From contig NC_010628.1 of assembly GCF_000020025.1 (NCBI RefSeq), positions 4,200,001-4,232,000 of the forward strand: 32,000 nucleotides of DNA, in the 5' to 3' direction. The notes below the pieces were generated by a model, which saw nothing but the letters and a program-made list of their open reading frames with translations, was not told where the DNA came from and made no database searches. Positions within the stretch are counted from its first letter, which is position 1, and every line of letters starts with the position of its first letter. The stretch comes from Nostoc punctiforme PCC 73102 (GTDB taxonomy: Bacteria > Cyanobacteriota > Cyanobacteriia > Cyanobacteriales > Nostocaceae). The translations under genes were made by a program, and so were the position numbers. Below are positions 4,400 to 32,000 of the stretch, piece by piece.

Positions 4400-5184
4400 A
4401 ATGGCCAGAAAAATATGGAGAATGGGCGATTGTCACAGGTGCTTCTTCCGGAATTGGTAGAGCATTTGCTCATGATTTAGCCCAACGAGGGATGAATCTG
4501 ATTCTCGTAGCCCGCCAACTTGCAGGGCTGGAAGAAGTAGCCGCAGAATGTAACTCTTGGGAAACAAAAACTTACTTGTGTGCCGTTGATTTGACCGAGC
4601 CTAATGGGATACATAAGCTGATATCTTTAGTTGGCGATAGAGAAGTTGGCATTTTAGTTAATAATGTAGGTATTGTTGCTAGAGGTTTATTTACTAAAAT
4701 TGAACTTCAAAGACAACTAGATATGGTAACGCTACACTGTACTGTTCCTGTAGCCCTTACGCACCATTATTTAGCTCAGATGCTCAAAAGAAATCAAGGA
4801 GCTATTATTAATATTTCTTCGGTGGCTGCTTATCATTTTCAACCCTTGTTGACAACCTATGCTGCAACGAAAGAGTTCGATTGGAAGTTTAGTAAGTCTC
4901 TAGCTTGGGAACTGAAAGATACAGACATTGATATATTAACTGTAGTACCAGGATTCACTAAAACAGCAGCCTATGAGGCTGCCGACTGGAAAATTGATTT
5001 TGATTCTATTCCTGCTTTATTTAAGCCGCAAAATCCACGAGAAGTATCGAAAAAATCTCTTGATATCCTTGGTAAGCAACGCTCAATTATAGTTGCTTCC
5101 TTCATGGAAAAACTAATCATCAATGCTAATTACTTACTCCCCGATAGATTCATGGAATTTATCTTGAGTAAGATGTTTGTTTAA
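4396..5184 (+). CDS. Short-chain dehydrogenase/reductase, translationally coupled to the upstream flavoenzyme
   Basis: TGASSGIG, NNVG and YAATK motifs. Its ATG overlaps the upstream stop (GCATGAAATGG, an ATGA overlap). Confidence 0.85.
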   Translation: MKWPEKYGEWAIVTGASSGIGRAFAHDLAQRGMNLILVARQLAGLEEVAAECNSWETKTYLCAVDLTEPNGIHKLISLVGDREVGILVNNVGIVARGLFTKIELQRQLDMVTLHCTVPVALTHHYLAQMLKRNQGAIINISSVAAYHFQPLLTTYAATKEFDWKFSKSLAWELKDTDIDILTVVPGFTKTAAYEAADWKIDFDSIPALFKPQNPREVSKKSLDILGKQRSIIVASFMEKLIINANYLLPDRFMEFILSKMFV

Positions 5185-8241: not shown

Positions 8242-8283
8242 TTGCTGAAAAACAAATATGTAGTCTTCATCAGCATAATACAA

Positions 8284-9498
8284 ATGTCTTCTCATCCAAG
8301 CCACACTCTACTTTTTTTGTTCACAACTTTTCTTCCAGAAGTCACGGGTTCAGCTATTTTTAATTGGGAACGAGTCCAATGGTTTGCCAAGCAAGGAATT
8401 TACCGTATAATTGTTTTAGCACCAGATTGGCAAGAACAATCAAAATTGCCTGTTGTACCACCAGATTTAGCAGAAAACTTAATTCTAGAAACTTATCCTT
8501 CTCAGCCTTGGTTGCTTTACCCTTTGCTGCATGTGCCTAAGTTTTCTACGGCTCGTTACATTAACCAAAGGATAGCTCATTACAAACCAGATTTAATCAA
8601 TGTTGTAGATGTAGAGCGGTTATTCTTATTTAGCACTTGGCATTTACCGGGTAGACGCTATGCCAAAAACAACAAAATTCTTTATATCACCGAATATCAT
8701 ACAGATTATTGTAATCATGTCAGTACCTATCCCGCTGGTAATTTGTTGCGAGAAATATTATGGAAACCAATAACCAAATATTTGTACAATAAATGTGATA
8801 TTACTATAGCCATAAGTCCCACAGCAAGTAAAATTTTGCAAAAAATGGGCATTTCCAATGCTATAACCATACCCATGTATGGTTTAGATTTATCCGCATA
8901 TACTCCTAGTCGCCGCAATCGGCAATTTTTAGAAACTTGGTTAACTCCTCAAGAAAAAGACAATAAAGTTATCTTATTTTTGGGAAGAATTGCCTTAGAA
9001 AAAAGAATTGATATACTCATCAAAGCATTTTCTACATTACAACTTAAACAAAAAAATAGTTCTTTAATCATCGCTGGAGATGGGCCTGTAGAAGTCGTTC
9101 AGAAATTAAAAAATCTGGCTAAATCTATTCCTAATATTCACTTTATAGGTTTTGTACATGGAGAAAAAAAAGCTAACCTATTAGCTGCATCTGATATCTA
9201 CTGTAGCCCTGCTCCCTACGAAACCTTTGGCCGTACACTTGTAGAAGCAATGGCTTCTGGTACACCAGCAATTACTGTTAATAGTGGTGGAGTTTCTGAC
9301 TATATTTTAGATGGAATCAATGGCTATCTTGTCGAACCAAATGATGTAGAAGCATTAACTCATGCAATTCTCAAAATTTTGAGAAATGAAAATAGAAACG
9401 TTATACAACGGGCTTGCGAAGATGCTAAACAATTTTCTCTAGAACAAGCCTGTGAAAATCTCCATAATTATTACCAAGAGATTTTAAATAAAAACTGA
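8284..9498 (+). CDS. Glycosyltransferase, GT4 / group-1 family
   Basis: The C-terminal half (FLGRIALEKRIDILIKAF...ETFGRTLVEAMASGTPAI...GYLVEP) has the GT-B EX7E-type signature. I prefer the ATG at 8284 (MSSHPSH) over the TTG at 8242. Confidence 0.8.
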   Translation: MSSHPSHTLLFLFTTFLPEVTGSAIFNWERVQWFAKQGIYRIIVLAPDWQEQSKLPVVPPDLAENLILETYPSQPWLLYPLLHVPKFSTARYINQRIAHYKPDLINVVDVERLFLFSTWHLPGRRYAKNNKILYITEYHTDYCNHVSTYPAGNLLREILWKPITKYLYNKCDITIAISPTASKILQKMGISNAITIPMYGLDLSAYTPSRRNRQFLETWLTPQEKDNKVILFLGRIALEKRIDILIKAFSTLQLKQKNSSLIIAGDGPVEVVQKLKNLAKSIPNIHFIGFVHGEKKANLLAASDIYCSPAPYETFGRTLVEAMASGTPAITVNSGGVSDYILDGINGYLVEPNDVEALTHAILKILRNENRNVIQRACEDAKQFSLEQACENLHNYYQEILNKN

Positions 9499-10811: not shown

Positions 10812-13397
10812 ATGAAAACAATCAAAAAGTCTACTAAGAAAACAATCGATAAGTCTACTAAAAAGCCAAAGTACACTTTAGTAGATTCCCTTGAAGGTGC
10901 AGTTAATGAAGTTCCTAGTAAGATAACTCAATTTGTAAATTCACTTGGAGGTATAACCGATGTTAATGCTACTAATCCAAATGATTTCTTATTTGTCACA
11001 CTCACACCTGCAAGTGACGTAGTTTTTGGAGGATTTGGCGAATATCAGCTGTTATTTGGACGTAGAGGCAATGATGTACTCTATGGTTTAGATCAGAGTT
11101 TAAGTAATCAGAAATCATCACTTAACATTGATGTGATGCTTGGTGATTCTGAACCAGTTGCTTTATTTGCATATTCAGATATTTTGAATACATTAGGTGG
11201 AAATCCTCCCACTATTGGGAAGGATAGATTTGTACTTGGTGACTGGCGAAAGTCATATTACACAAATAATGGTTATTACGACTTTGCATACATTGTTGAT
11301 TTCAACCGTAATCAAGATGTGATTCAACTACATGGGCGTGCAGAAGATTATGATTTTATTGATGTTCCTTTTCTGGGAACAGCTATATTTCAGAAGTCAA
11401 AAGATAGTCCGTTATTTTGGGATGGAGAGTTAGTCGGAGTTGTATTTGCGGCCTCTAATTTAGATCCGAATGCTTCTTATTTCCGCTATGTAGGCTCTAC
11501 TCCACCGCCAGTATCAGGGCCAACCCAAGTTAAGCATTTAGGTACTGTTGGTTTTGATCTAGCTACTGCTGTTGCTACAGATATTTCGGGAAATGTCTAT
11601 GTAGTAGGTGTAACTTCTGGTGCGTTTATAGGTAATAATGCTGGTTCTTATGATATCTGGCTCACCAAATATGATAGTGATGGTAATCAGTTATGGAATC
11701 AACAGTTTGGTAGTTCCAAATTTGACTTAGCTGTTGCCATTACAACAGATAAGTTAGGTAACTTTTATCTGGTGGGAAGTACCCAAGGTGACTTGGCAGG
11801 AAAACCTACGGAAGCAGAGCAACAAGATGCTTGGCTAGCTAAATATGACAGTAATGGTAATCAATTGTGGATTCGTCAACTAGGAGATTCAATAGTTACT
11901 GGTGGTTCTGATGTTACTGTTGACGACAACGGCAATATCTATGTAGCTGGACTGACAGTTACTCCAGATCAAAGGCCAGTTGCCATCATTGATGCTCAGG
12001 ATGATTTTTGGGTAACAAAGTACGATTCTAATGGTACCCAACAGTGGTTTACCAAAGTTGGGACAGATCCATCTTATCCAGCGATTTGGGATGAAGCTTA
12101 CGGTGTAGCCCTTGCAAAGGATGGATCTGTCTATTCTACAGGATGGACTTATGGTGGTCTAGCTAGAGACAATCCCCAATTGGGATTATACGATTCTTGG
12201 ATCACTAAATATAACAACGATGGACAAGTGCAATGGATTAGACAGTTTGGTAGTGCAAACGATGACTTTTCTTGGAGTGTTGTCACCGATAGTCAAGGTA
12301 ATGTCTATGCCTACGGATGGACTGGCGGTGATTTTGGTGGTAAAAGTTTTGGACAAGATGACGTTTGGCTAATTAAGTTTTCTTCTGATGGCACCCAAGA
12401 TTGGGTACGTCAGTTTGGTACTAGCGGTGATGATGCAGTCTTTTTAGATGGACTCAAGATTGATTCAAAAGATCAATTATATGTTGCTGGTTATACTGAT
12501 GGTAGCTTTGGTGGTTCCAATGCAGGGTCTTATGATGCCTTCGTTGCCAGCTTTGATACCAATGGCAACCAACTTTGGATTCAACAGTTTGGCAGTGCTG
12601 AACTCGATAAGGCTACAAATCTGACTGTTGATAACTTTGATAATGTCTACGTTACGGGATTTACAGAGGGTTCATTGGGTGGTTCCAATGCTGGCTCTGT
12701 AGATAGTTGGGTCGCCAAGTTGAATTCTGCAACAGGGACTTTGGAAACATTTAATCCATCTTCAACTCCAATACTCAATAAAATAGCTGGTACTAATAGT
12801 AAAGATAGCCTTATCGGTACTGAACCAACCTCTAGCAATTTGAAATCATTGAATGCAAAAACTTCTGCAACTTCAAATCCAGCTAATGGGAACGATGAAA
12901 TTCATGGTCAAGGAGGCAATGACACTATAGATGGTAAGGGAGGTAATGATGTGCTGTATGGTGACGTCGGTAATGATACACTCATTGGCGGCGCAGGAAA
13001 CGACAAACTGGTTGGTGGTGCTGGAAATGATATCTTGACTGGTGGTTCTGGTAAAGATAACTTTATCTTCGACACAGGCAAATTTTTTGCCAACAGGGAT
13101 CTTGGTGTAGATGGAATTACTGACTTTGAACTTGGTGATAAGATTGTCCTGAGTAAAAGCACTTTCACCACCTTGAAAAGTTCGTTAGGAGACGGCTTTA
13201 ACAACTTGAAAGATTTTGCTGTAGTTACTAATGGTACGGCAGCTAAAAGTAGCCAAGCCTTTATTGTGTACGATTCAGTTCATGGTGATTTATACTACAA
13301 TCAAAACGGCTCTAGCTCTGGATTTGGCAGTGGTGCTCTCTTTGCTACCTTGGTTAATCATCCCAGTCTTAGTGCCAGTGATTTTCGTATCGTATAG
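10812..13397 (+). CDS. Large secreted protein: SBBP-type beta-propeller repeats plus C-terminal RTX calcium-binding nonapeptide repeats (type I secretion substrate)
   Basis: There are about 10 repeats of the form D-x-W-(L/V/I)-x-K-Y-D-S-x-G-x-x-x-W-x-x-Q-x-G. These are followed by [53 protein letters not shown] (GGxGxD). There is no N-terminal signal peptide, and the C-terminus (...LSASDFRIV) has the T1SS-substrate style. Confidence 0.85.
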
Positions 13398-14029: not shown

Positions 14030-15217
14030 ATGATGAAGCGGATGTTAAAAAAAAAATCTTTAAATCTTTGGTTAATTGGACTGCTTGTTTTAGCTGGTCT
14101 AGTAGCGAGTACTACAACCTTTTACGGTTTATCTTTCTTTAGGCAAGGAGTGGGAGAAAGCAATACATCAGCTCCAACGATAAAGAAACTAGTAACTAGA
14201 AAGATAACGGCTTTAGGGAGATTGCAACCATTAACAGAAGTTATTCGCTTGTCAGCACCCCAGACTTTAGAGAACGATCGCGTCGCTCAATTGTTTATCA
14301 AAGAAGGTGATAAGTTGAAAAAAGGACAAATAATCGCCACATTAGACTCTAAACAAAGCCTACAATTAGCCTTAAAAGAGGCACAAGAGCAAGTCAGAGT
14401 TGCCCAATCTCGGTATGACCAAATCAAAGCAGGTGCAAAAGCGGGAGATATTCAAGCGCAAAAGGCTACAATTACTAAATTGCAAGCCGAATTACAAGGA
14501 GAAATTGCCACCCAAAAAGCTAATATTGCTCGTTGGCAATCAGAAGTTACCAATGCTCAGGCAGAATATAATCGGTCTCAATCCCTGTACCAACAAGGGG
14601 CGATCGCCGTTTCTGATTTCGATCGCAAGCGTTTAGCCCTAGAAACGGCTCAAGCTCAATTAGCCCAAGCATCTGCCCAGCAAAATGGTACTGTAGCCAC
14701 ACTTGAAGCCCAAATCACCGAAGCCAAAGAAGTACTTAACCGGATAGCTGAAGTACGTCCTGTCGATCTACAAGCTGCAAAAACCGAGATAGACAGAGCC
14801 AATGCTGCTGTAAAACGCGTCCAAAACGACTTAAATCAGGCTGATATCAAGGCACCAATTGCTGGACAAATTATTAAAATTCATACCCGACCGGGGGAAA
14901 AGCTGACTGATGAAGGTATTGCCGATCTAGGGCAAACCAATGACATGGTAGCGATCGCCGAAGTCTATCAAACCGATATTGCTAAAATTCACGTAGGGCA
15001 AAAAGCCCTGATTACCAGTCAAGCATTTACTGGACAAGTCAAAGGCACTGTTTACGAACTTGGACTGGAAGTTATTCGCCAAAATGTGTTTAGTAACCAA
15101 CCAGGAGAAAACCTCGACCGCCGAGTTGTAGAAGTCAAAGTGCGTTTGCAACCTGAAGACAGCGAACGCGTATCCCGTTTGACTAACTTACAAGTCCAAG
15201 TAGCTATAGAAATCTGA
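14030..15217 (+). CDS. devB: ABC-exporter membrane fusion protein, DevB family (HlyD-like)
   Basis: N-terminal TM segment, then ITALGRLQPLTEVIRLSAP...RVAQLFIKEGDKLKKGQIIATLDS, a long coiled coil and a C-terminal beta-barrel region, as in DevB-family adaptors. An AAGGAG RBS abuts the first ATG, so the real start may be the Met at 14042. Confidence 0.8.
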   Translation: MMKRMLKKKSLNLWLIGLLVLAGLVASTTTFYGLSFFRQGVGESNTSAPTIKKLVTRKITALGRLQPLTEVIRLSAPQTLENDRVAQLFIKEGDKLKKGQIIATLDSKQSLQLALKEAQEQVRVAQSRYDQIKAGAKAGDIQAQKATITKLQAELQGEIATQKANIARWQSEVTNAQAEYNRSQSLYQQGAIAVSDFDRKRLALETAQAQLAQASAQQNGTVATLEAQITEAKEVLNRIAEVRPVDLQAAKTEIDRANAAVKRVQNDLNQADIKAPIAGQIIKIHTRPGEKLTDEGIADLGQTNDMVAIAEVYQTDIAKIHVGQKALITSQAFTGQVKGTVYELGLEVIRQNVFSNQPGENLDRRVVEVKVRLQPEDSERVSRLTNLQVQVAIEI

Positions 15218-15290
15218 AGTCAAAAGAATATAGGCTACCTGTGAGAATTCATTAGACAGTCCTTTCATTTTTTCTCCAAAAATTCAATTT

Positions 15291-16457
15291 ATGCTTCGTA
15301 AACTATTTTATAGAATTCCTTTAGCCTGGTTGCAAATGTCCAGGGAAAAAACTCGTTTAGCAGTTGCAATTGTGGGAATTGCTTTTGCAGATATTCTGAT
15401 GTTTGTACAATTGGGGTTTAAGAGTGCGCTCTACGACGCTGCTGTTAGACCTCAATATTCTCTACAAGGGGATCTTTTCTTAATTAATCCCCAGTTTGAA
15501 ACTGTGTTCTCTGTCAAGAGTTTTTCCAGACAACGTTTATATCAAGCTGCGGGATTTGACAGTGTGAGTTCGGTTAGTTACCTCTACATTGATTCTGGAC
15601 AGTGGCGCAATCCTATTACCCACAAAGACCGCCGGATTCTAATTTTTGGCATAGATCCGGCCAATTCTGCTTTTAAATTACCAGAGGTCAATCAACATTT
15701 GGATGACTTAAAAATGCTTGATACTGTGCTATTCGATCAAATGGGACGCTCAGAATATGGCCCCATCTCTGCTCTTTTACAAAAGTCTGATTTCTTACAA
15801 ACAGAAGTTAATAATGTTTTGATCCGAGTAGCAGGAATATTTAATTTGGGAGCATCTTTTGCAGCTGACGGTAACGCCATTACTAGTGAATCAACTTTTA
15901 TGAAGTTATTTCCCAACCGTCGGACAGACCAGATTGATATAGGTATAATTAAACTGAAATCCAATGCAGATATTCAACGGATACAAGCAGATATACAGAC
16001 TATTTTACCCGCAGATATTCAAGTGTTAACACAAGTAGAGTTGGCTACAAGGGAGAAAGAATATTGGGCGAATTCTACTCCCATTGGATTTATATTTGGA
16101 TTAGGTTCACTAGTGGCTTTTATCGTTGGTACAGTGATTGTTTACCAGATTATTTATGCAGATGTCTCCGATCATTTACCAGAATACGCTACATTGAAGG
16201 CAATGGGATATAGCAATCGCTACTTAATAATTGTCATTTTTCAAGAATCATTGATTTTGGCCTTAATAGGCTTCATTCCAGGTTGTGTTCTATCTTTGGG
16301 AGTATATCATGCTGCCCAAATATCTACCCGATTGCCAATTATGATGACAGTTAGTCGAGCTGTTGTTGTGCTGTTGTTGACCATTGTCATGTGTTTTATT
16401 TCTGGAGGTATTGCGATCAATAAGTTACACAAAGCTGACCCTGCGGATATATTTTAA
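15291..16457 (+). CDS. devC: ABC-exporter permease, DevC family (FtsX/MacB-like)
   Basis: IPLAWLQMSREKTRLAVAIVGIAFADILMFVQLGFKSALYDAA... followed by a periplasmic domain and a C-terminal FtsX-type 3-TM bundle. This is the typical DevC architecture and size. Confidence 0.8.
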   Translation: MLRKLFYRIPLAWLQMSREKTRLAVAIVGIAFADILMFVQLGFKSALYDAAVRPQYSLQGDLFLINPQFETVFSVKSFSRQRLYQAAGFDSVSSVSYLYIDSGQWRNPITHKDRRILIFGIDPANSAFKLPEVNQHLDDLKMLDTVLFDQMGRSEYGPISALLQKSDFLQTEVNNVLIRVAGIFNLGASFAADGNAITSESTFMKLFPNRRTDQIDIGIIKLKSNADIQRIQADIQTILPADIQVLTQVELATREKEYWANSTPIGFIFGLGSLVAFIVGTVIVYQIIYADVSDHLPEYATLKAMGYSNRYLIIVIFQESLILALIGFIPGCVLSLGVYHAAQISTRLPIMMTVSRAVVVLLLTIVMCFISGGIAINKLHKADPADIF

Positions 16458-18743: not shown

Positions 18744-20573
18744 ATGAATTGTCTCCGTAATCGGTTTGTTAAGATTGCTCTGACTACCGTGCTTTCTCTA
18801 GGATTGTACCTACTAGCAGCCAATTTTAGCCATCGTGGCAATCTTGTAGAAGCCAATTCTCAATCTCAATTAATTGCACAAGCAAATCGTCGTCCTTCTT
18901 GGCTGGCACCGTCTCCACCTAAGTTCCCTTATTTCCGGGATAGGAAAGTAGTGATTGCCAAGGCACAAAAAATTTCGGATGGTCTTGAAGCCCACATTAA
19001 AGCATGGTTTGCGGGTAAGGCTCCTCCGGGGATTCCAAATACATTGATTCCGAAGGGGGTGGATACCAAAGAATTCCGTAATTTTCGCTTAGTAAAACCT
19101 GAGGAGATTACACCTGAGCAACAATGGGCAGTCCGACCGGCTGAGAAAATTAATCTCAAAGCAACTCGTGGGTTTTTCCCAGACCCCAATGCAACCTACT
19201 TAGTATTACCTAATCTGCTTGCCCCCTTTGGCAGTAAGGTAATCGTTGAAGGAGAATTTCCTCATGCGCGGTTCTTTGACATTCAAGCCACACCTTCGTT
19301 TCATCCTGAAGCCTACCGATATCGGGGCTTTGGTGTTGGCGAAGTGCCGATTGTAGATGTTGATATCGATCCACTACCAGGAAATGTCAATCCATTCCGA
19401 GTAGATGCGAACCGTAATGCCACTAAGCGTAAATATCGAGTGACATTCGATATGGCAATCGGCAATCCTGTTGATTTGAATCCAGTGTTTCGTCCTCCTC
19501 ATTATCGCGCACCTGGCAACAATCGCATGGGTGGCTCAATCCTCTATCAAGGACCTTGGGGAGAGACTAAACCTTGGGGCCATGGACTGGGTGTATGGGA
19601 TATGGGTCAGATATGGATTCGCTATTATGCACCAGATAAAGCTAAGGGTTCCTTAGGGGGTGTAGCACTTCCCAAAGTCTATTATCAGTTCCCTGATGGT
19701 AGAAAATACTATATCCAAGCTGATTTTGAAGGTTGGGAGAATCGATCTAATCGGCGCATTGCTGCTAAGTGGACAGCTCCTGAAGATCCAACTAAACATA
19801 AAGGTGCAAAAACGGGATGGTTCAAGAAATTTGGTATTTTTCGAGCAATTGTTGAGGGAATGGCTTTGGAAGTTCCCTGGTTGAACCTAGACCAGGAGTA
19901 TGTACGCGATCTCGATCTTGGTGTCGCAGGTCGTGGAGAAGACATGCCACCACCTGGTAACTTTTCAGTGGCAGCAACGGAATGTAATTACATTAATTAT
20001 TTGTTACGGGGTATGTCTCTGGGACGGGATAAGGTTGCCGTATTAACTGGTAAATTGCCGACAACTCCACGTACACGCAATGGTGAAGCCGTGATGAAAA
20101 AAGCCCAGGCTCGTTACTGGTCAATCACTGCTACTGATACAGCATTGCCCGAACCTGATGGCTTTGTTGGTGCAGTCTTACATTCAGTCATGGATGATGA
20201 AATTATCACAGATGCTCAGCAGCGATATGCGATCGTTTTATCTCGAGCGGAAGACCGTCCGAAAAATGCAACGGCCAGCAATGGTGTCACCTGGGTCAAC
20301 TGGGGACCAACTACAAACGTCACCTGGACTCTGCGTTGGATGAGCGTTTATCCCAATTGGGACTTTGGTTTAACTCCAGACGATCGCAAGATAGGATGGG
20401 CTAGTGATTGGGCAAGCAAACGATATGACCCATCCATAATTGGACAAAACTCTCACAATGGTGTTTTAGGTGAATATTTACCTGAAATACACTATATGAC
20501 TAAAGCCCGTTTTGAAAAGTTGGGAAATTCCCTCAAACCAGATAAAATTCCCATCTGGGAGGATAACGACTAG
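18744..20573 (+). CDS. 609-aa predicted secreted or membrane-anchored protein of unknown function
   Basis: Long ORF with an N-terminal hydrophobic segment (IALTTVLSLGLYLLAANF). I am not confident of any recognisable domain; ARYWSITATD is faintly reminiscent of DUF1214/DUF1254-type proteins. Confidence 0.7.
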   Translation: MNCLRNRFVKIALTTVLSLGLYLLAANFSHRGNLVEANSQSQLIAQANRRPSWLAPSPPKFPYFRDRKVVIAKAQKISDGLEAHIKAWFAGKAPPGIPNTLIPKGVDTKEFRNFRLVKPEEITPEQQWAVRPAEKINLKATRGFFPDPNATYLVLPNLLAPFGSKVIVEGEFPHARFFDIQATPSFHPEAYRYRGFGVGEVPIVDVDIDPLPGNVNPFRVDANRNATKRKYRVTFDMAIGNPVDLNPVFRPPHYRAPGNNRMGGSILYQGPWGETKPWGHGLGVWDMGQIWIRYYAPDKAKGSLGGVALPKVYYQFPDGRKYYIQADFEGWENRSNRRIAAKWTAPEDPTKHKGAKTGWFKKFGIFRAIVEGMALEVPWLNLDQEYVRDLDLGVAGRGEDMPPPGNFSVAATECNYINYLLRGMSLGRDKVAVLTGKLPTTPRTRNGEAVMKKAQARYWSITATDTALPEPDGFVGAVLHSVMDDEIITDAQQRYAIVLSRAEDRPKNATASNGVTWVNWGPTTNVTWTLRWMSVYPNWDFGLTPDDRKIGWASDWASKRYDPSIIGQNSHNGVLGEYLPEIHYMTKARFEKLGNSLKPDKIPIWEDND

Positions 20574-20912: not shown

Positions 20913-20951
20913 GGGGTTTTTTGTATAAACCCTCGAAAAGGGGGATTATGA
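20913..20951. repeat. Left 39-bp terminal inverted repeat of the recombinase element
   Basis: See the element entry. It overlaps the recombinase stop codon. Confidence 0.8.
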
Positions 20952-21515
20952 GTTTTCTGAAAGGGAAGAGGTAGAATTTCCAAGGTAACGATAGACACTC
21001 GCCTTGGAAAGATCGAAGTCTTTCATCAAGATTTTAATAAGCACGCCTTGCTTCCGTTGAAGCCGAAGTTCCACGATCTGCTCTTGAGACAAACGTTTAC
21101 TCCTGCCAAATCGAACACCTAACTCCTTTGCCTTATTAATGCCATCTAGCTGACGCTCAGAACGGAGTTCAGTCTCAAATTCAGCGATCGCTGCCAGCAT
21201 GTTAAAAAGTAGCCGTCCGGTAGCATCCGACGTGTCGATATTTTGGTCGAGCACCTGCAAGGCAACATGTTTACGCTGGAGTGCATCAGCGATCGTGCAA
21301 AGGTGAAGAGTCGAACGAGCTAACCGATCTAAGCGTGACACAATCAATGTATCGCCATCTCTAACATATTCCAGACAAGCCGCAAGCTGGGAACGTTGCT
21401 GGTTAGTGCCGCTTTGTGTTTCCTGATAAATCTTGTCGCAATGTTTGAGTTTATGTAACTGAATATCCAAACTCTGTCCCGACGAGCTTACTCTTGCGTA
21501 CCCAACCCTCGCCAT
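20946..21515 (-). CDS. Small serine recombinase (resolvase/invertase family, 189 aa)
   Basis: MARVGYARVSSSGQSLDIQ carries the catalytic-Ser motif, followed by DTLIVSRLDRLARS, AEFETELRSERQ and a C-terminal HTH (SKASVYRYL). Size and layout match Hin/Gin/Tn3-type resolvases. Confidence 0.9.
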   Translation of the reverse strand: MARVGYARVSSSGQSLDIQLHKLKHCDKIYQETQSGTNQQRSQLAACLEYVRDGDTLIVSRLDRLARSTLHLCTIADALQRKHVALQVLDQNIDTSDATGRLLFNMLAAIAEFETELRSERQLDGINKAKELGVRFGRSKRLSQEQIVELRLQRKQGVLIKILMKDFDLSKASVYRYLGNSTSSLSENS

Positions 21516-21734: not shown

Positions 21735-22067
21735 TAATACTATTCGTGCGATGTTTGGTGCTGTTCGGTTAACCATTGCAGTGCTATCACAAATAAAAGT
21801 GACGTTGAAAACTTAGTTTTGGGTAATAAGGACAGCAATTAGCGTATTTAGCCCAACATTTAATCAAAATTTATTTAGCCTTTAATCTTCAGAATTTACA
21901 AAGATTATTAGTAGCTTGATATGTAAATAATATAATAATATACGTAAATTTATTTGCATTATTGGTATCAAAAAATACTAATAAGTAGCCTTTAGAAGTG
22001 CTTGACAAATTATGCATCAAGTGCTGGGCATTTTTGGATTTATAAAAAACCAACAAATTCAACGTTT

Positions 22068-22793
22068 ATGTCCGACTGCCAAGCAAAACCTGAAACCAAC
22101 TACTTAAGTACGTCTAGTGGTAAGTATTTGACAGCGTTTCAGAGGAAACTGCTACTACAAAATTTGCAAAAAAGTCTAGTTGAATCCTACCGCCAACGAA
22201 TTGAAATCATGTTGTTGGCAGATGAGGGGAAAACTCAAAGGTCGATTTGTCAAACTTTGGGATGTTGTGCAGCAACAGCACGACATTGGACACACATAGC
22301 CCGGAGTGGCATGGCGCACCAATGGCAAGATTGCCCCATTGGTCGCCCGAAGGCAGTAAATGACCAGTATTTAGAACGTTTGAAAGAACTGGTTAATAGT
22401 AGTCCTCGCGCTCATGGCTATGCTTTTCGTCGGTGGACAGCAAACTGGCTAGGGAAACATCTAGCAAAAGAATTTGGGATTGAGGTGAGCGATCGCCATA
22501 TCAAGCGACTGCTCAAACAGATGGGATTATCCACACTACCAAAACCCAGTAATGTTGAACAAAACAGCACTGAACAAGTTCAGGGTTCCAAAATTTTGAT
22601 TTGTGACCTCCAATCGGCAGGTATTCCAGATGATTCCGAATTTTTACCTATTAATTTTGCCAAATTAGGAAAACATTTAGACATTCATGGCGCAAAATAT
22701 ATCTGCTCAGTTGCTTACTCTGCAACAGTTCAACAATACTCTGGGTCTTTCTCTTTCTACAGAGGAATTTCAACACTGTCTTCAACAAGTTAA
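22068..22793 (+). CDS. Helix-turn-helix protein resembling the N-terminal DNA-binding half of IS630-type transposases (no DDE domain); possible regulator
   Basis: RIEIMLLADEGKTQRSICQTLGCCAATARHWTHIA is the HTH. GRPKAVNDQYLERLKELVNSSPRAHGYAFRRWTANWLGKHLAKEFGIEVSDRHIKRLLKQMGLS is the winged-helix part. I prefer the ATG at 22068 over the TTG at 22002. The 3' 107 nt overlap the transporter ORF. Confidence 0.6.
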   Translation: MSDCQAKPETNYLSTSSGKYLTAFQRKLLLQNLQKSLVESYRQRIEIMLLADEGKTQRSICQTLGCCAATARHWTHIARSGMAHQWQDCPIGRPKAVNDQYLERLKELVNSSPRAHGYAFRRWTANWLGKHLAKEFGIEVSDRHIKRLLKQMGLSTLPKPSNVEQNSTEQVQGSKILICDLQSAGIPDDSEFLPINFAKLGKHLDIHGAKYICSVAYSATVQQYSGSFSFYRGISTLSSTS

Positions 22794-25416: not shown

Positions 25417-25488
25417 AACAAAAGGACAAGGAGGAAGCTTTTCTTATCTCCCTATATCCAAAATTCCAAATTGATATTAGGAAAAATC

Positions 25489-27012
25489 ATGCCAAATACA
25501 TTGAATGGAAGGGTTCAAACCCAAATCTATGATGTAGAACAGCACGAAGAAATTTTAAGAGAGCAAATACCAGCTAGATCGACTGATGATTGGGCTGATG
25601 CAACCAAGGATTTACTTGATAGCTTGCCCCAGGTTTGGACAAGGGGATTGTTGTACTTTTTAATCGTGTTTGTGTCGATCATTTTACCTTGGGCAATGCT
25701 ATCTAAAGTGGATGAAACTGGTACAGCAAGAGGGCGGCTTGAGCCAAAGGGAAAGACGGTTAGACTCGATGCTGCTGTGGCAGGTACTGTTGCCGAAATT
25801 CGGATAAAAGAGGGCGATTCGGTTAAAGTTGGGCAGACTTTATTAGTGTTGGAATCGGAATTAGTTAAAGCAGAATTACGGCAAGTGCAAGATAAGTTAG
25901 AAGGACAATTAAATCGACTTTCTCAGTTAAATTCATCTAAAAGTCAGTTAGTTGTATCTTTGACAACTCAACAGCAACAAAACCAATCTCAAGAGTTAGA
26001 AAAGCAGTCTCAAATTGACCAAGCGCGAGAGAATATGAATGCTCTTAGGAATTCTTATGACTTACAAAAAGACGAAAAATTAGCTCAAGTTAATCAGGCA
26101 CGGCAAACTCTTGAACATAGTCAGACAGCTAATAAGTTAGTAAACAGTAGTTTGACGAGTACCGAGCGGGAAGTGGAACGCTATCGCAATCTTTGGCAAT
26201 CAGGCGTTGTGCCAGAAATTAATGTTGTTGAAAAACAAGATATAGCTAAAGACAAGCAACAGTTATACGAACAAAATAAATCAGATATTCAGCAAGCTAA
26301 ACTACGTTTGCTAGAACAACAGAGTAGTTATGAGCGGACTATTCGGCAAGCAAATGCAGATATTGAGCAGGCAGAATTGCGGCTGAAAGAACAGGAAAGG
26401 AGTTATCAGACCTTAACTCGTTCCAGCAAGCTAGCTGTGTTAAAAATCGACGAACAACAGAAGAGTTTAGAAACAGAAATTACTACGCTTCAGGCAGAAA
26501 TTGCTCAAACCAAGAGTCAGATTGTCTCCTTAAAGTTTCAGTTAGGACAACGAGAGTTAAGAGCCACAGTGAATGGTAGAGTGTTTCAGTTACCGATACA
26601 ACGGGCTGGGTCTGTAGTGCAGCCAGGAACAATGATTGCAGAAATTGCACCTCAAGGTTCGCCTTTAATAATTCGGGCGCAAATGGCGACAACTGAAAGT
26701 GGTTTTTTGCGAAAAGGGTTGCCAGTCAAATTAAAGTTTGACGCTTATCCCTTTCAGGATTATGGAATAGTAGAAGGCAATTTAGCAGAGATTTCCCCTA
26801 CTACCTTAGAAGTAGATACACCTAATGGCAAGGTAGCAGCTTATGACTTAGAAATTGCCTTAAAACAAAATTGTCTTCTCTCGGCGAATAAGTGTATTGC
26901 CTTGCATCCTGGGGATACTGCAACAGCTGAAGTTATTGTGCGTCAGCGTCGGATTATTGATTTTCTGCTCGATCCATTTAAGCAATTGCAGCAGGGTGGG
27001 GTGAAATTGTAA
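25489..27012 (+). CDS. HlyD-family type I secretion membrane fusion protein
   Basis: N-terminal TM (LLYFLIVFVSIILPWAML), a lipoyl-like motif (GTVAEIRIKEGDSVKVGQTLLVLES), a very long Q/E-rich coiled coil and a C-terminal beta domain. The ATG at 25489 is preceded by a GGAGGAAG-type RBS region; the track start at 25471 is a TTG. Confidence 0.85.
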   Translation: MPNTLNGRVQTQIYDVEQHEEILREQIPARSTDDWADATKDLLDSLPQVWTRGLLYFLIVFVSIILPWAMLSKVDETGTARGRLEPKGKTVRLDAAVAGTVAEIRIKEGDSVKVGQTLLVLESELVKAELRQVQDKLEGQLNRLSQLNSSKSQLVVSLTTQQQQNQSQELEKQSQIDQARENMNALRNSYDLQKDEKLAQVNQARQTLEHSQTANKLVNSSLTSTEREVERYRNLWQSGVVPEINVVEKQDIAKDKQQLYEQNKSDIQQAKLRLLEQQSSYERTIRQANADIEQAELRLKEQERSYQTLTRSSKLAVLKIDEQQKSLETEITTLQAEIAQTKSQIVSLKFQLGQRELRATVNGRVFQLPIQRAGSVVQPGTMIAEIAPQGSPLIIRAQMATTESGFLRKGLPVKLKFDAYPFQDYGIVEGNLAEISPTTLEVDTPNGKVAAYDLEIALKQNCLLSANKCIALHPGDTATAEVIVRQRRIIDFLLDPFKQLQQGGVKL

Positions 27013-27086: not shown

Positions 27087-27151
27087 CCAGCTAAGAAGTC
27101 ATGCTCTCATATTTAATTTTAATTTTGCTAACCAAATTTAGGATAAATATC

Positions 27152-27880
27152 ATGTCACAATCTATCAACATTACCAACGAAGACATTCTACACCAAGTTA
27201 AGTTATCTTGTAAAATTCCTGAGATAGTTGAGCAGATTATTACCCGTAAGCTAATCATAGCGGCTGCTGAAGAAGCTGGAATAAAAGTAGAGGTTGAGGA
27301 ACTTCAGAAAGCAGCAGACCAAATACGGTTAGTTAATAAACTCGATAGTGCCGATCGTACTTGGCAATGGTTAGAGAAACATAGTTTGTCCTTAGATGAT
27401 TTTGAAGAAATTGCTTACTTAAATCTCATATCTGGAAAATTAACTAATCATCTTTTTGCTGATAAGGTTGAACCCTATTTCATTGAGAACCAACTAGATT
27501 ATGTTGGTGTGGTGATGTATGAAGTTGTTCTAGATGACGAAGATTTAGCCCTAGAACTCTTCTATGCGATTAAGGAAGGTGAAATGAGTTTCTATGATGT
27601 AGCTCACAAATTTATTCAGGATACTGAGTTACGCCGAAAAGGGGGATATTTAGGGATAGTGCGCCGCAAAGATTTAAAACCAGAGATTTCTGCTGCTGTT
27701 TTTAGTGCTAAACCGCCACAGGTTATTAAACCAATTGTAACATCTAAGGGAATACATTTGATTTTAGTAGAGGAATTAATTCAACCAGACCTAAATGAGA
27801 AACTTCGCACAAATATCATTTTTAACTTATTCTCTCACTGGCTTAATCAACAAATTGCACAATCTGAAACAAGTAAGTAA
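27152..27880 (+). CDS. Parvulin-type peptidyl-prolyl cis-trans isomerase with a SurA-like N-terminal helical domain
   Basis: The C-terminal GGYLGIVRRKDLKPEISAAVFSAKPPQVIKPIVTSKGIHLILVEE is a PpiC/parvulin pattern. There is no clear signal peptide from Met 27152. The alternative ATG at 27101 adds MLSYLILILLTKFRINI. Confidence 0.75.
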   Translation: MSQSINITNEDILHQVKLSCKIPEIVEQIITRKLIIAAAEEAGIKVEVEELQKAADQIRLVNKLDSADRTWQWLEKHSLSLDDFEEIAYLNLISGKLTNHLFADKVEPYFIENQLDYVGVVMYEVVLDDEDLALELFYAIKEGEMSFYDVAHKFIQDTELRRKGGYLGIVRRKDLKPEISAAVFSAKPPQVIKPIVTSKGIHLILVEELIQPDLNEKLRTNIIFNLFSHWLNQQIAQSETSK

Positions 27881-27943: not shown

Positions 27944-28102
27944 CATCAGTGAGAGGTTAGAGTGATTGCACTTTTGTCAAGAGGGTGCAGGAAAAGGAGA
28001 TAAATCCAGCTTGGAGATTGGTTTTCGCAGGGCTTTAACTACTCCTAAATCTTGATTTTCTTTGGCAGCAAAGTACTTAATAGGGTCATCCGCTTTACCT
28101 TT

Positions 28103-29338
28103 GTGATAGGGGGTGCATCCCAGTTTTTATTATTCCAAAACAAATAAATAACAGGGAAGGATTGTTACAGAAAACGGAAGTCAGGAAGTAAGGGGATATC
28201 AGGAAGGGATAATAAAGTCATCAAGACTAGGTGTATCAATGACTCCTGAAGAAGAACAACAGATAAAAGAATATTCTCGTGCAATAGCAAAGATACTGTA
28301 CAAAAGTACTACGGGTGAGCAACTCACAAGTTTGGCAAAAATAGAAGAAGTAGTACGCTCTCAAATGCGGAAGCATGTAATGCCAGAAGTAGGGTTTTTT
28401 TATCGAAAATGCCGCAGGAGAAAGCAGAGGATACAAACGAAAAATAAAAAGTATTATTGGAGAACTGCCAATTACAAACTCTCAAGCACAAAAGCTAGAA
28501 ATTAGACCCCATAATCAATTGAGTCCATATTTAGAAGCTTGTTGCTTACGAATCAGCGCGTCGGTATCGTATCAACGTGCGGCAGAAGATATTGAATATT
28601 TAACTGGTGTAGAAGTATCAAAAAGTGTGCAGCAACGATTAGTGCATCGTCAAAATTTTGAATTACCGCAAGTAGAATCAACTGTGGAAGAATTGAGTGT
28701 GGATGGAGGAAATATACGCATTCGTACAATCAAGGGACAAGTCTGTGATTGGAAGGGTTATAAAGCTACCTGCTTACATGAAAAACAAGCTATTGCTGCC
28801 TCATTTCAAGAAAATAGTCTTGTAATTGATTGGGTCAAAAGCCAATCAATTGCTCCTATCTTGACCTGTCTTGGCGATGGCCATGACGGTATTTGGAATA
28901 TTGTCCGCGATTTTGCTCCCGAACACCAGCGTCGGGAAGTACTTGATTGGTTTCATCTGATGGAAAACCTACACAAGATTGGCGGTTCTAATCAACGGCT
29001 CAATCAGGCTAAAATCCTTCTCTGGCAAGGAAAAGTTGATGATGCTATCGCTGTCTTTGCTGACTGTCAGCTAAAACAAGCTTTTAATTTCTGTACTTAT
29101 CTTGAGAAACATCGACACCGGATTGTCAATTACCAATATTATCAAGCAGAACAAATCTGTTCCATTGGTTCTGGTGCTATTGAGTCTACTGTCAAACAGA
29201 TTGACCGTCGAACCAAAATTTCTGGCGCACAATGGAAATCTGATAACGTTCCTCAAGTCTTAGCTCAACGCCAGAGCTTATCTCAATGGATTAATCTTTG
29301 CTCACTAAATAAAAACTGGGATGCTCCCTGTCATAGGC
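28103..29338 (+). mobile_element. Possible inner element carrying the ISKra4-like transposase (boundaries approximate)
   Basis: Inverted repeat with a perfect 17-bp core: GCATCCCAGTTTTTATT (28115-28131) and AATAAAAACTGGGATGC (29308-29324). Weaker matches extend outward. No target duplication is seen. Confidence 0.35.
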
Positions 29339-29346
29339 GACACTAA
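28239..29346 (+). pseudogene. ISKra4-family-like transposase gene split by a single frameshift in a T7 run
   Basis: ORFs 28239-28505 and 28519-29346 join into one frame if one T is removed from TTTTTTT at 28395-28401. The joined frame reads ...MPEVGFFIENAAGESRGYKRKIKSIIGELPITNSQAQKLEIRPHNQLSPYLEACCL.... Downstream motifs (LTCLGDGHDGIWNI, DWFHLMENLHK, SIGSGAIESTVKQI, KISGAQW) match my memory of cyanobacterial ISKra4-family transposases. Confidence 0.65.
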
Positions 29347-29864
29347 AATGGTACAAGCCACGAAAAATCATCTCTAAAGAAATGCGGTCAAATGGTAAAG
29401 CTAATTCATCAGCTATCCAAAGTCGTTCAAAATTAAGTAGTGCGAACTTAATGCTATCAGGCAGTGGTCGCTTAAGCCGTTGCTGCCAATTCAGTTGTAA
29501 CTGAGGTAGTAAATCTTTAAAGACCCGCTCAAATAATTCAGCAGGGAAAACTAAAAATCTTTCTGACAAAGACTGTTGAGCAACTTTAGTAACAGGACAC
29601 CATAATAAACCTTCTCATGCTAACAGACGATTCAACTCTTGAACGCCAGGAACTTGTCGCCACAACAGTGTTAATATTGCTGCTACCATTAAAGATAAAT
29701 TGAGAACTCTGTCTCGTAATCCTAACTGTTTATAATATTTTTGTTGGGCAAAAACTGCTGGGGTTAAATATTGCTTCTAAGTGTTTAGCGATCGCTTCAT
29801 TATCTATAGTAGGAGTATTATGTCGGTGTGGGTAGTCAGAGTTTTGTTTTGGTCGCTTGGGCAT
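29339..29864 (-). pseudogene. 5' portion of a DDE transposase gene (IS4-superfamily-like) with a frameshift, an in-frame TGA and a 3' truncation
   Basis: The minus strand reads MPKRPKQNSDYPHRHNTPTIDNEAIAKHLEA, then a frameshift in a T-run. It continues LTPAVFAQQKYYKQLGLRDRVLNLSLMVAAILTLLWRQVPGVQELNRLLA*EGLLWCPVTKVAQQSLSERFLVFPAELFERVFKDLLPQLQLNWQQRLKRPLPDSIKFALLNFERLWIAD.... No catalytic DDE region follows. The family assignment is from memory. Confidence 0.5.
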
Positions 29865-30143
29865 GGTGGTAAACCAAACTTTTCATTACCTCGTTTAATA
29901 ATTGAATTTACACAACAATGTTGCCCGCTTCTTGCTTTAGTTTTTTGTCGTTACAATACTTTTTCTTACCTTATTTAAGTTATCAATTACCTTCAAGATA
30001 ATGATAATCAAATAGTGGGGGAGGAGGCAAGCTTCTCTTGCCTTCTCCCCCTCTCCCCATACACGATTATCATTCTTATTAAGACTATTTTGAGTATTTT
30101 AGCTGATTGACAAAAGGCGCTTTATTCTAACCTCTTACGGATG

Positions 30144-30152
30144 GGCCCAGAC
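30144..30152. repeat. Right copy of the 9-bp target-site duplication GGCCCAGAC
   Basis: It lies immediately outside the right IR and is identical to 27935-27943. Confidence 0.8.
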
Positions 30153-30463
30153 TAGTTTTTGCGTAATGCTTCAAGAGAGTACAAAATTAATAACCTAAGT
30201 TGCTAGCGATCGCAAAGTACTTTTTTTAAGTACAAAACTTAATTCTTAGTATCTAAACACTACTTAAAAAATAGCTTTTGATACAAAATTAATACTGTTT
30301 ATAGGTACTAACTAGCAACTTATGTTAATAGTGTTTGAGGCAGTATAAGACTTATATTTGATTTTTGAGAAACTAAGCTGCCTAGAAGCTTGACACATCA
30401 AGCTTTCCTTGTGAGTATAATGAGGAAAATGTAAGATTCCTACGTTAGTGGCTAACTAACAAC

Positions 30464-30703
30464 TTAGTCAAGTCCCAAAGTTGCTAGTGTTATTGTTTTT
30501 ATTGTCAAGATAGCTGTTGTTTCTGTTGTTGGTATAGCTGTTGTTGTTGTAGCCGTTACTGTTGTTACTGTTATTATTGTTGAATTGAGTCCACCCTGAA
30601 TGCTGAGAGCATCACTTTCAGACAATTGGTCCAAATAGCTTTCGGAATCATCAAATAATTCACTGCCAGTAACGGATAGATTATCAATTTTTATTGTACT
30701 CAT
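30464..30703 (-). CDS. Double-glycine-leader peptide precursor with a 41-aa threonine-rich core
   Basis: Strong RBS (AAGGAGA, 7 nt upstream). The leader MSTIKIDNLSVTGSELFDDSESYLDQLSESDALSIQGG has hydrophobic residues at -4, -12 and -15. The core is LNSTIITVTTVTATTTTAIPTTETTAILTIKTITLATLGLD. Confidence 0.8.
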   Translation of the reverse strand: MSTIKIDNLSVTGSELFDDSESYLDQLSESDALSIQGGLNSTIITVTTVTATTTTAIPTTETTAILTIKTITLATLGLD

Positions 30704-31115
30704 TGCTTTATCTCCTTTGAAGAATTATTCAGGTTGCATAGGTATTAATTGCTGTATTTACCAATACTTACCTGAAAATATCTATATCTTAAAAGTTAAG
30801 ATTAGCAAATTCAATTTACAAAATTACTTTTTGATGACATAATTATTTCATTATTAGCTTAATTTTAAATATAAAAAAAGTTTTTAGACAAATTGAAGAG
30901 TTTGCTTTTAATATAAGACATTAACAAGGCTCATCTCTATTATTATGGGTAAAATAATCTAGGAGAAATCCAATTATAAAATTATAGTATATTAAAAAGA
31001 GACAAAACTAATTCATTTATGCGATCGCAAATTTTAAATCTGAGCAAAAACTAGAAAAAAATCAGCCCAAAATCCCTCTTGGACTGAACGATAAAAATTT
31101 AGATTTTGACTTTGT

Positions 31116-31304
31116 TCAAAGTAGTTCACTGTTTGAATTCGCTTCTTTCTGCTCAATATGTTGGCTCTGTTGTTGGCGACCTAGATATGAATCTTTATCG
31201 TTCTTACCTACAATGTATCCAAAGGCTGCACTTCCAATAGCTAGGAACAACAGTAGAACAATGCCTTCGTAACCATTGGGTTGATAAACAGGAGGCTGAC
31301 TCAT
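31116..31304 (-). CDS. 62-aa single-TM protein: leaderless paralog of the neighbouring precursor core (candidate immunity or partner protein)
   Basis: MSQPPVYQPNGYEGIVLLLFLAIGSAAFGYIVGKNDKDSYLGRQQQSQHIEQKEANSNSELL. The segment GSAAFGYIVGKNDK aligns with ASAALGYAVGRNDR of the 63-aa precursor. The RBS is weak. Confidence 0.55.
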   Translation of the reverse strand: MSQPPVYQPNGYEGIVLLLFLAIGSAAFGYIVGKNDKDSYLGRQQQSQHIEQKEANSNSELL

Positions 31305-31434
31305 AAATTAATTTCCCGTTAATACAACTAAAAATTTACCTTAAATGCAGAGTGAAGGACATGAGTATTAAGACTAAGCCCTTCACTAAATGAACTGAAA
31401 ATTTTTGAATGATCTACAGAGGGATTATAGCTTA

Positions 31435-31626
31435 CTAGCGATCGTTACGACCCACTGCATATCCTAGTGCAGCAGAAGCTAAACCAAGGCTGATAAGTGC
31501 AAAAATGGTGAAACCACCATGAGATGATCCTGCTTGTTCATCAGATAGCTCGTTGAGAAAGCTTTCCTGATCTATAAAAAGAGATGAACCGGCTGGTTTA
31601 ATGTCGCTAATACAAATGGTTGCCAT
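31435..31626 (-). CDS. Double-glycine-leader peptide precursor with a 25-aa hydrophobic core
   Basis: AAGGAAA RBS upstream. Leader MATICISDIKPAGSSLFIDQESFLNELSDEQAGSSHGG and core FTIFALISLGLASAALGYAVGRNDR. Confidence 0.8.
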   Translation of the reverse strand: MATICISDIKPAGSSLFIDQESFLNELSDEQAGSSHGGFTIFALISLGLASAALGYAVGRNDR

Positions 31627-31676
31627 GATTGAATTTCCTTTTATTTCAATTAAGCGAAAAGTGGTTTTTGCTGATT

Positions 31677-31714
31677 GCTAAACCTACATATATATAGGAA
31701 ATAATGTAGGTTTA
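31677..31714. terminator. Perfect 12-bp-stem hairpin between two precursor genes
   Basis: CTAAACCTACAT (31677-31688) pairs with ATGTAGGTTTAG (31703-31714) around a 14-nt loop. No adjacent U-run, so it may be a partial terminator or an RNA-processing/stability element. Confidence 0.35.
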
Positions 31715-31799
31715 GAATAGTCTTGCTAAATCAATCAGACTTTTTAAACTACATACAAATGCTTCTTAACCTGTTCAAAATATTTAGAACAAGCAGAGT

Positions 31800-32000
31800 T
31801 TAGTAGTAGCGACCTTTAATGTAGGAAGCAACAAAAGTAACACCAACAACAGTAAGACCAATGCTTAAACAAGCTCCACTACTAGCTGTAGTGATAACTG
31901 TCCAAATAGCACCACCTTGATTACCTAATTCATCTTCAGTTAAAGACATCAGATAGCTTTCTTGATCGGCAAACAAATCGTAACCGGCTGGGCGTAAATC
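31800..32000 (-). CDS. Third double-glycine-leader peptide precursor, 5'-truncated by the window edge
   Basis: Not in the ORF track. The minus strand from 32000 reads DLRPAGYDLFADQESYLMSLTEDELGNQGG followed by the core AIWTVITTASSGACLSIGLTVVGVTFVASYIKGRYY*, with the stop at 31800-31802. The leader is homologous to the other two. Confidence 0.75.
   Translation of the reverse strand, partial: DLRPAGYDLFADQESYLMSLTEDELGNQGGAIWTVITTASSGACLSIGLTVVGVTFVASYIKGRYY

Follow-up and report, generated by a model that had tools for sequence, protein, structure and literature searches.

Peptides with a conserved double-glycine (GG) leader and variable cores are known from cyanobacteria as Family 1A, which comprises 570 peptides in 183 clusters, is confined to cyanobacteria and, together with Family 1B, makes up the majority of the peptide clusters associated with HopA1 and a phosphotransferase (PMC8153245, Eyles et al. 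2021). A two-protein dehydratase of this type, CaoK/CaoY, performs eight successive dehydrations in vitro (PMC9486802), and kintamdin has a Thr-rich N-terminal core that is processed stepwise (PMC10880069). The gene considered here, pre79, encodes a 79-aa precursor on the minus strand of a 32,000-nt stretch of Nostoc punctiforme PCC 73102 (contig NC_010628.1, positions 4,200,001 to 4,232,000), referred to below as the window. Its exact peptide is listed for this strain as WP_012409787_4 in the electronic supplementary information (ESI) of the Family 1A study, 3458 nt from the HopA1 bait and on the same strand (PMC8153245); with gene and family catalogued before, pre79 is not a new precursor discovery. 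The reading favored here, with a probability of roughly 55%, is that pre79 is a GG-leader precursor traveling with a dehydratase, whose core is dehydrated and then cleaved from its leader and exported.

The leader of pre79 (MSTIKIDNLSVTGSELFDDSESYLDQLSESDALSIQGG, 38 aa) is of the double-glycine type and matches the leader profile with E = 5e-24. The core (LNSTIITVTTVTATTTTAIPTTETTAILTIKTITLATLGLD, 41 aa) contains 17 Thr, 1 Ser, and 0 Cys, and the translation is identical to the Thr-rich, Cys-free string given by the first-pass annotation of this DNA, which had also pointed out the strong ribosome-binding site that is indeed present (Table 1). The Thr content is far above that of the large open reading frames (ORFs) of the window (5.5%, binomial P = 1.6e-11). 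Opposite the core, the plus strand has a 43-codon Val-rich run between stops, with no ORF of at least 30 aa listed, as the same annotation had described. The unmodified core has a monoisotopic mass of 4189.35 Da and the whole precursor of 8235.23 Da, while 18 dehydrations would bring the core to a minimum of 3865.16 Da. Neither Pfam nor NCBIfam scans of the peptide return a match even at E <= 1, and an Rfam scan of the window yields none.

A search of 5.8 billion proteins reveals 45 relatives of pre79, which belong to Nostoc, Gloeotrichia, Atlanticothrix, and Microseira and have a near-invariant leader (MATIKIDNLSVTGSEFFSDSESYLDQLTELSExDALSIKGG) with 15 invariant columns, the Gly-Gly among them. 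All 15 are present in pre79, including G37 and G38. The wider leader superfamily comprises 548 clusters at E <= 1e-3 according to a profile search of 1.84 billion cluster representatives. In the leader DNA of 24 genes, 2797 differences fall on the third codon position vs 1001 and 873 on the other two, and the core type TTWTIVTVTLLLRSDS, shared by Atlanticothrix and Nostoc, differs by 4 synonymous substitutions and 1 non-synonymous (L009 vs L012). The third-position excess and the latter counts together indicate that translation follows the frame of the leader and that some cores of the family, at the least, are under protein-level selection. The earlier claim that the minus-strand frame with its canonical GG leader is real is thus upheld, and we have little doubt that pre79 is a genuine GG-leader precursor of the cyanobacterial family. 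As orthologues of the pre79 core itself, by which conservation of its frame could be judged, only identical copies are found among the 5.8 billion proteins; contigs L001, L002, L004, and L005 match window positions 29493-32000 perfectly and are for this reason uninformative on selection.

The putative dehydratase is encoded past the window end. Contig L003 matches the window at 100% identity over 29495-32000 and extends beyond it; it carries there, on the strand of the precursors, PpiC2, an aldo-keto reductase (AKR)-like gene, a HopA1-like gene, and the C-terminus of a kinase. Its HopA1-like gene ends at 1562 and pre79 starts at 5021, which matches the 3458-nt bait distance. In L036, from a strain 96-97% identical, the order is aminoglycoside phosphotransferase (APH), HopA1, AKR-like, PpiC2, and the precursors, followed by convergent PpiC1, HlyD, and ATP-binding cassette (ABC) genes; both L003 and L036 thus have a co-linear HopA1 and phosphotransferase near the precursor. 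The synteny scan, limited to one genome per species, found 29 loci in at least ten genera of cyanobacteria (Nostoc, Atlanticothrix, Microseira, Hydrococcus, Coleofasciculus, Desmonostoc, Microcystis, Crocosphaera, Raphidiopsis, and Arthrospira). In 22 of them a HopA1-like gene lies at most 10 kb from the precursor; within the close subfamily the count is 15 of 16 loci. C-terminal tblastn places a kinase homologue ahead of this gene in most of the 22, and convergent PpiC, HlyD, and ABC genes occur in most of the 29.

The kinase of the related loci is an APH-like protein of 386 aa (PF01636, 9.7e-12) whose best NCBIfam match, over the full length, is the class V LxmK model NF038156 (2.7e-25). Residues H218, D220, N225, and D244, which form the H-x-D-x4-N and D(W)E motifs with the Mg-binding Asp, are invariant in 21 sequences. 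A LanK-type APH-like kinase, as expected of class V lanthipeptides, is therefore present as a distant relative and not as an equivalog. The HopA1-like protein (WP_012409787; PF17914, 5.6e-63) aligns with E = 9.7e-8 to chain B of PDB 9DK1, the LxmY subunit of the lexapeptide dehydratase LxmKY, and the R...K-x9-R-x6-Y pattern is kept between the two. All 23 cyanobacterial homologues have R209, K240, R250, and Y257, whose spacing matches R187, K219, R229, and Y236 of CaoY, so that the catalytic Lys, Arg, and Tyr of a LanY-type lyase are in place. In CaoY, the K219A and R187A mutations abolish or nearly abolish elimination and R229Q dehydrates inefficiently, while the role of Tyr236 was deduced from conservation with SpvC (PMC9486802). 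Such a LanK/LanY-type pair about 3.5 kb upstream on the same strand gives strong contextual support to the earlier view of the core as a dense field of dehydration sites.

In the proposed mechanism, the 38-aa conserved leader would dock pre79 on the kinase-lyase complex, the core Thr and Ser (17 + 1) would be phosphorylated one by one, and elimination of the phosphate would leave dehydrobutyrine and dehydroalanine. The C39 peptidase domain of the transporter would then cut after Gly-Gly, and the peptide would be exported with the help of HlyD, the PpiC-like proteins being possible accessory or chaperone factors. The expected product is a linear, very hydrophobic, multiply dehydrated 41-mer; since the core has no Cys, no lanthionine ring can form and the product cannot be a lanthipeptide. 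The gene itself, its leader family, the synteny, and the intact catalytic motifs of the enzymes are established; we infer that the enzymes act on the pre79 core, as we do the number of sites and the action of the product. For dehydration of the core by the kinase-lyase pair, taken separately, the odds are even or marginally better. The further picture, in which most of the 18 Ser/Thr are dehydrated or some are left phosphorylated, so that a poly-dehydrobutyrine 41-mer is secreted from a slippage-made core, is tentative and rather improbable in this full form.

The composition of related cores was derived from the close subfamily, which has 55 unique cores with 996 residues in total (10-41 aa each). 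Thr is the most frequent of the residues reported (23.3%), followed by Ile (15.2%), Leu (9.9%), Pro (9.5%), and Val (8.5%), and Cys is at 0.8%. Thr is the first core residue in 43/55, at least 1 Ser or Thr occurs in 54/55, and 47/55 have no Cys. Compared with the subfamily rate, the Thr content of pre79 is still elevated (P = 0.007), and among 185 representatives, with a median of 12%, pre79 is second in Thr fraction and first in Thr count. Long Thr-rich cores also occur in Nostoc sp. FACHB-280 (LIITTPTTTIPTTTIPTITTTPTTTRTPPTTWYC, 18/34 Thr, with two paralogues besides), Microseira wollei (14/38 Thr), and a Nostocales metagenome-assembled genome, as well as behind the more distant leaders P0137 (12/28 Thr) and P0152 (LASVTVTVTLTVTVSWSWTW). 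A search for Thr-rich cores, as suggested by the first-pass annotation, thus finds them in independent lineages (FACHB-280, Microseira wollei, P0137). Its description of the core as extraordinary has to be toned down, since Thr-richness and absence of Cys characterize the subfamily as a whole: pre79 is the extreme end of a family trait and not a one-off.

Several observations weigh against dehydration of this core. The kinase reaches 89 bits vs the 315-bit LxmK equivalog cut-off, so its substrate and chemistry could differ, and for the window strain it is known from its last 137 aa only (L003). pre79 lies about 3.5 kb from the lyase, behind a terminator-like hairpin and a 360-nt gap and between insertion sequence (IS) remnants. 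It is absent from the closely related strain, and may be neither co-expressed nor needed. Enrichment of Ile, Val, Leu, and Pro besides Thr also fits a physical, beta-prone or hydrophobic role, and Family 1A has no conserved Ser, Thr, or Cys positions (PMC8153245). The literature searched yielded no characterized product of the cyanobacterial family.

The first alternative is that pre79 is exported and its leader cleaved while the core stays unmodified, acting as a hydrophobic class-II-bacteriocin-like peptide or as an amyloid or matrix peptide. The GG leader with C39-ABC, HlyD, and PpiC is the generic layout of cyanobacterial "bacteriocin" clusters (PMC3140520), and EbfG1-3 of Synechococcus elongatus, which are secreted by a GG motif, form amyloids and enable biofilm (PMC4997328, PMC9981879). 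The enrichment in the cores extends to all beta-branched residues (T 23%, I 15%, V 8.5%), and the grand average of hydropathy of the pre79 core is +0.79. However, the kinase-lyase pair goes with the leader subfamily in 15/16 loci, a tie not easily accounted for unless the leaders are its substrates. The core, moreover, shows no alternating amphipathic pattern. The first-pass annotation had seen Thr alternating with I/V/A/L, but the number of T-h-T triplets (4 vs a shuffle mean of 2.8, P = 0.30) is at the level of the composition, and shuffled sequences have on average a higher beta hydrophobic moment. AlphaFold2 run on the precursor with the family alignment also gives a low-confidence model whose core has no strands (predicted local distance difference test, pLDDT, 55; predicted template modeling score 0.13), which is weak evidence at this short length. 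Export without modification is therefore regarded as unlikely.

The origin of the core bears both on the favored reading and on a second alternative. The repeats of its Thr-rich part have periods of 3, 9, 15, and 24 nt, all multiples of three. ACA accounts for 15/17 Thr codons vs 32% in the large ORFs of the window, and ATA for 5/6 Ile codons vs 18%. The FACHB-280 paralogues consist of comparable ACA/CCA/ATA units, and a single in-frame unit of 15 nt separates L014b from L014c. In-frame slippage of A/C-rich repeats looks like the normal route of the family to new cores, judging from these genes, and by this origin the pre79 core is probably young; we propose that it is a strain-specific accessory variant produced by in-frame expansion of ACA-rich repeats. 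A diversity-generating retroelement was considered as another source of the A-rich variable core and rejected: the window ORFs of at least 100 aa contain no reverse transcriptase domain, and the tandem repeats account for the composition. A second open frame, -1, runs through the core DNA as well, because it is an (ACA)n-like repeat; the reading there is Asn-rich (QFNNNNSNNSNGYNNNSYTNNRNNSYLDNKNNNTSNFGT), and one frameshift at the leader-core junction would swap the Thr-rich core for it.

As the second alternative, it can be argued from the same features that microsatellite-like repeat expansion has left the long Thr-rich core as a recent by-product, selectively neutral or decaying, in an accessory copy that may be poorly or not expressed and may lack a function of its own. 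Besides the nested tandem repeats with their atypical codons and the open -1 frame, as expected of low-complexity DNA, this would agree with a core that is a singleton among the 5.8 billion proteins (identical copies aside), with the lack of the C-terminal PTPPV(F/Y/V)L motif common to the relatives with the closest leaders, and with the position behind a terminator-like hairpin. The cassette that carries pre79 is likewise absent in L036 and L037, with IS debris on its flanks; an IS4-like remnant of about 200 nt stands in its place (L036:10657-10860). In contrast, the leader retains its 15 invariant positions, the GG site, and a good ribosome-binding site, the frame is open over 41 codons with repeat periods that are all multiples of three, and independent lineages have ACA-repeat Thr-rich cores (FACHB-280, Microseira wollei, and P0137). 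A functionless by-product is thus considered doubtful, and slightly less probable than unmodified export.

Finally, a TxT beta-solenoid or ice-binding face, or a dense O-glycosylation substrate, as the first-pass annotation had speculated, is very improbable: all that speaks for it is the abundance of Thr with a handful of TVT, TAT, and TIT triplets, while the shuffle tests and the AlphaFold2 model described above led us to drop the ice-binding or amphipathic-beta reading, there is no regular protein repeat of coil length (the 9-, 15-, and 24-nt DNA repeats correspond to 3-8 residues, too short for coils), and O-glycosylation was dropped as a leading idea since none of the related loci inspected has a glycosyltransferase in its conserved part, the sole one in the window (8242-9498) belonging to a glycolipid-type gene set 21 kb from pre79.

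Table 1. Features of the pre79 locus and of the remainder of the window (positions are those of the window)
Feature	Position	Strand	Basis
pre79, 79-aa precursor gene, ATG start	30464..30703	-	ORF list and sequence
pre79 leader codons	30590-30703	-	
pre79 core codons	30467-30589	-	
pre79 stop codon	30464-30466	-	
Shine-Dalgarno-like AAGGAG	30712..30717	-	Sequence reading; 8 nt upstream of pre79 ATG
Nested imperfect in-frame tandem repeats, Thr-rich part of core	30493..30582	-	Tandem Repeats Finder
Strain-variable 575-nt cassette, pre79 and its upstream region	30396..30969	.	blastn of L036 and L037 vs window, both junctions
Terminator-like hairpin after p62	31062-31087		
p62, 62-aa leaderless small membrane protein	31116..31304	-	BLASTP to pre63 core
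pre63, second GG-leader precursor, core FTIFALISLGLASAALGYAVGRNDR	31435..31626	-	ORF and leader profile; WP_012409787_5 in ESI of PMC8153245
pre73, third GG-leader precursor, 5' end cut by window edge	31800..32000	-	Full 73 aa in L003 and L036
Cyclic nucleotide (cNMP)-binding/C39 peptidase/ABC exporter, 909 aa	22687..25416	+	Peptidase_C39 1e-41, ABC_membrane 6e-50, ABC_tran 5e-37
HlyD-family periplasmic adaptor	25471..27012	+	TIGR01843, 229 bits, above cut-off
PpiC1, PpiC/parvulin-like	27101..27880	+	Rotamase 9e-12; TIGR04500 "putative peptide maturation system protein" 3e-16, below cut-off
Broken ISKra4-family transposase, two ORFs	28239..29346	+	NF033572, 1.5e-74, model positions 115-416 of 422
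92-aa ORF in extra 2.2-kb segment	29291-29569		
IS630-like helix-turn-helix ORF, overlaps start of ABC exporter gene by ~100 nt	22002-22793	+	
Serine resolvase	20946-21515	-	
609-aa ORF	18744-20573	+	No Pfam or NCBIfam match
DevB/DevC-like exporter genes	14030-16457		
861-aa SBBP beta-propeller/RTX-repeat protein	10812-13397		

In the window, the minus-strand genes follow the order pre73 (partial), pre63, p62, and pre79, and are convergent with the plus-strand ABC, HlyD, and PpiC1 genes. Three non-identical precursors with hypervariable cores are thus found in one locus. The combination of a GG leader, a C39-ABC protein, and HlyD is that of double-glycine peptides exported by peptidase-containing ABC transporters (PCATs), and the C39-ABC protein is the predicted leader-cleaving transporter. 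The transmembrane segment of p62 is identical to the core of pre63 at 12/23 positions (52%, E = 4e-7), and p62 could be, as a leaderless paralogue, a candidate immunity or partner protein. A 2.2-kb segment (27944-30140) with the ISKra4 remnant lies between precursors and exporter genes; blastn shows that L036 lacks it. The gap between precursors and exporter is, from these comparisons, a rearrangement hotspot. At the other end of the exporter genes, the region of the IS630-like ORF is conserved in related loci, with blastn matches reaching approximately window position 21997.

The AKR-like gene (L036:7457-8473) and PpiC2 (L036:8568-9323) accompany pre73- and pre63-type precursors in some loci only, and are also found in L003, L019, and L024. 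The AKR-like protein has a weak Pfam match and no NCBIfam match, and its PDB matches, to Kv-beta/AKR, are weak and N-terminal. A role as candidate ketone reductase for the N-terminal 2-oxobutyryl group derived from a dehydrated Thr at core position +1 would fit. A parvulin/PpiC-type peptidyl-prolyl isomerase (PPIase) occurs in every related locus (L007-L035). Subfamily cores are rich in Thr-Pro and Pro-Thr (24 TP and 32 PT in 996 residues), and Pin1-type parvulins act on phospho-Ser/Thr-Pro; the PPIase might be a candidate actor on the product of the kinase.

A second module for peptides made by ribosomes and modified after translation (RiPPs) lies directly upstream of the kinase-lyase pair (L036:2300-5142), on what is the minus strand of the window genome, beyond the 3' end of the window. 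Its genes encode a precursor with a Nif11 leader (TIGR03798, 1.3e-15) and a radical SAM/SPASM maturase that scores above the cut-off of TIGR04103 (836 bits); small ORFs, of 66, 80, and 145 aa, belong to it as well. In L041 and L043, the relatives with leaders closest to that of pre79 lie between the Nif11/radical SAM module and the kinase. Judging from gene content, two maturation systems appear to be fused in one locus.

The first part of the window, between positions 243 and 17779, is occupied by a glycolipid-type set that includes a TubC_N docking-domain protein, two short-chain dehydrogenases/reductases, an ALO/FAD oxidase, an epimerase, a GMC oxidoreductase, a GT4 glycosyltransferase, and a methyltransferase. 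A GNAT protein lies within the same interval. These genes are unrelated to the precursor locus; the other ORFs are given in Table 1.

What is added here to the catalogued gene and family is the Thr-rich, Cys-free character of the subfamily with its near-universal Thr at core position +1, the finding that the lyase keeps the catalytic residues of LanY and matches the structure of LxmY, the origin of the cores by repeat slippage, the accessory, IS-flanked status of pre79, and the rejection of the ice-binding or amphipathic-beta idea. If dehydration of the core is true, it would provide the first defined product type for Family 1A, and LanK/LanY dehydratases would act outside lanthipeptide and thioamitide pathways, on Cys-free Thr-rich cores. 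Class-V-lanthipeptide machinery would then yield a type of cyanobacterial RiPP outside the lanthipeptides, with up to 18 dehydro residues and unusual rigidity and reactivity. The gain is tempered, as the gene and family were catalogued and the remainder is prediction. Repeat-driven diversification of cores behind a fixed leader would be a simple natural route to peptide libraries, with use in engineering. Nostoc punctiforme is a genetically tractable plant symbiont, in which a role as antibiotic, matrix component, or signal is testable.

Compared with class V lanthipeptides (lexapeptide, cacaoidin, and pristinin A3, with LxmKY and CaoKY), the pre79 locus has the same two-protein dehydratase type and, as substrate, a leader-bearing peptide with a Thr/Ser-rich hydrophobic core. 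In contrast to them, the core has 0 Cys, and hence no (methyl)lanthionine or aminovinyl-methylcysteine, the enzymes are distant (below the equivalog cut-off), the host is cyanobacterial and not actinobacterial, and the leader is predicted to be removed by the C39-ABC transporter. As for a LanX cyclase and a LanD decarboxylase, the L036 genes and the window ORFs of at least 100 aa include a single APH-like gene and lack a flavoprotein decarboxylase; an F420-dependent reductase is likewise not seen in the pre79 locus. From its genes, the locus thus seems to resemble a class V or thioamitide dehydration system but falls outside the lanthipeptides, having no Cys, LanX, or LanD. Nostolanthin of N. 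punctiforme (10.64898/2026.08.14.744816) was considered and set aside, as it comes from another cluster, with LanM and a Nif11 leader. Thioamitides and kintamdin (TvaC/D, TsaC/D, KinC/D) share the use of an APH-like kinase and a HopA1-like lyase to dehydrate Thr/Ser of a ribosomal peptide; the pre79 locus, however, has no YcaO/TfuA genes for thioamidation, no Cys-derived macrocycle, and another leader family. Linaridins of the cypemycin type are, like the product predicted here on chemistry alone, linear ribosomal peptides with several dehydrobutyrines and no lanthionine, but differ in leader, exporter, and taxon; no linaridin-specific genes were noted at the pre79 locus in the Pfam domain scans, beyond which no search for them was made.

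On the export side, the clusters of Wang, Fewer & Sivonen 2011 (PMC3140520) share the GG leader, the cNMP/C39 ABC protein, HlyD, a SurA-like rotamase, and several small precursors. A GG motif and a PCAT gene are present at the pre79 locus, and EbfG demonstrates, as a precedent, that such GG peptides can be matrix or amyloid components and are not necessarily antibiotics (PMC9981879). The descriptions of both the "bacteriocin" clusters and EbfG, however, include no kinase-lyase pair. The account of Family 1A is a general one, silent on the Thr-rich Cys-free subfamily, on the repeat origin, and on presence or absence among strains, and it is to this family that pre79 belongs, by its GG leader and hypervariable core, by the several different precursors encoded together, and by the HopA1 and APH genes close at hand.

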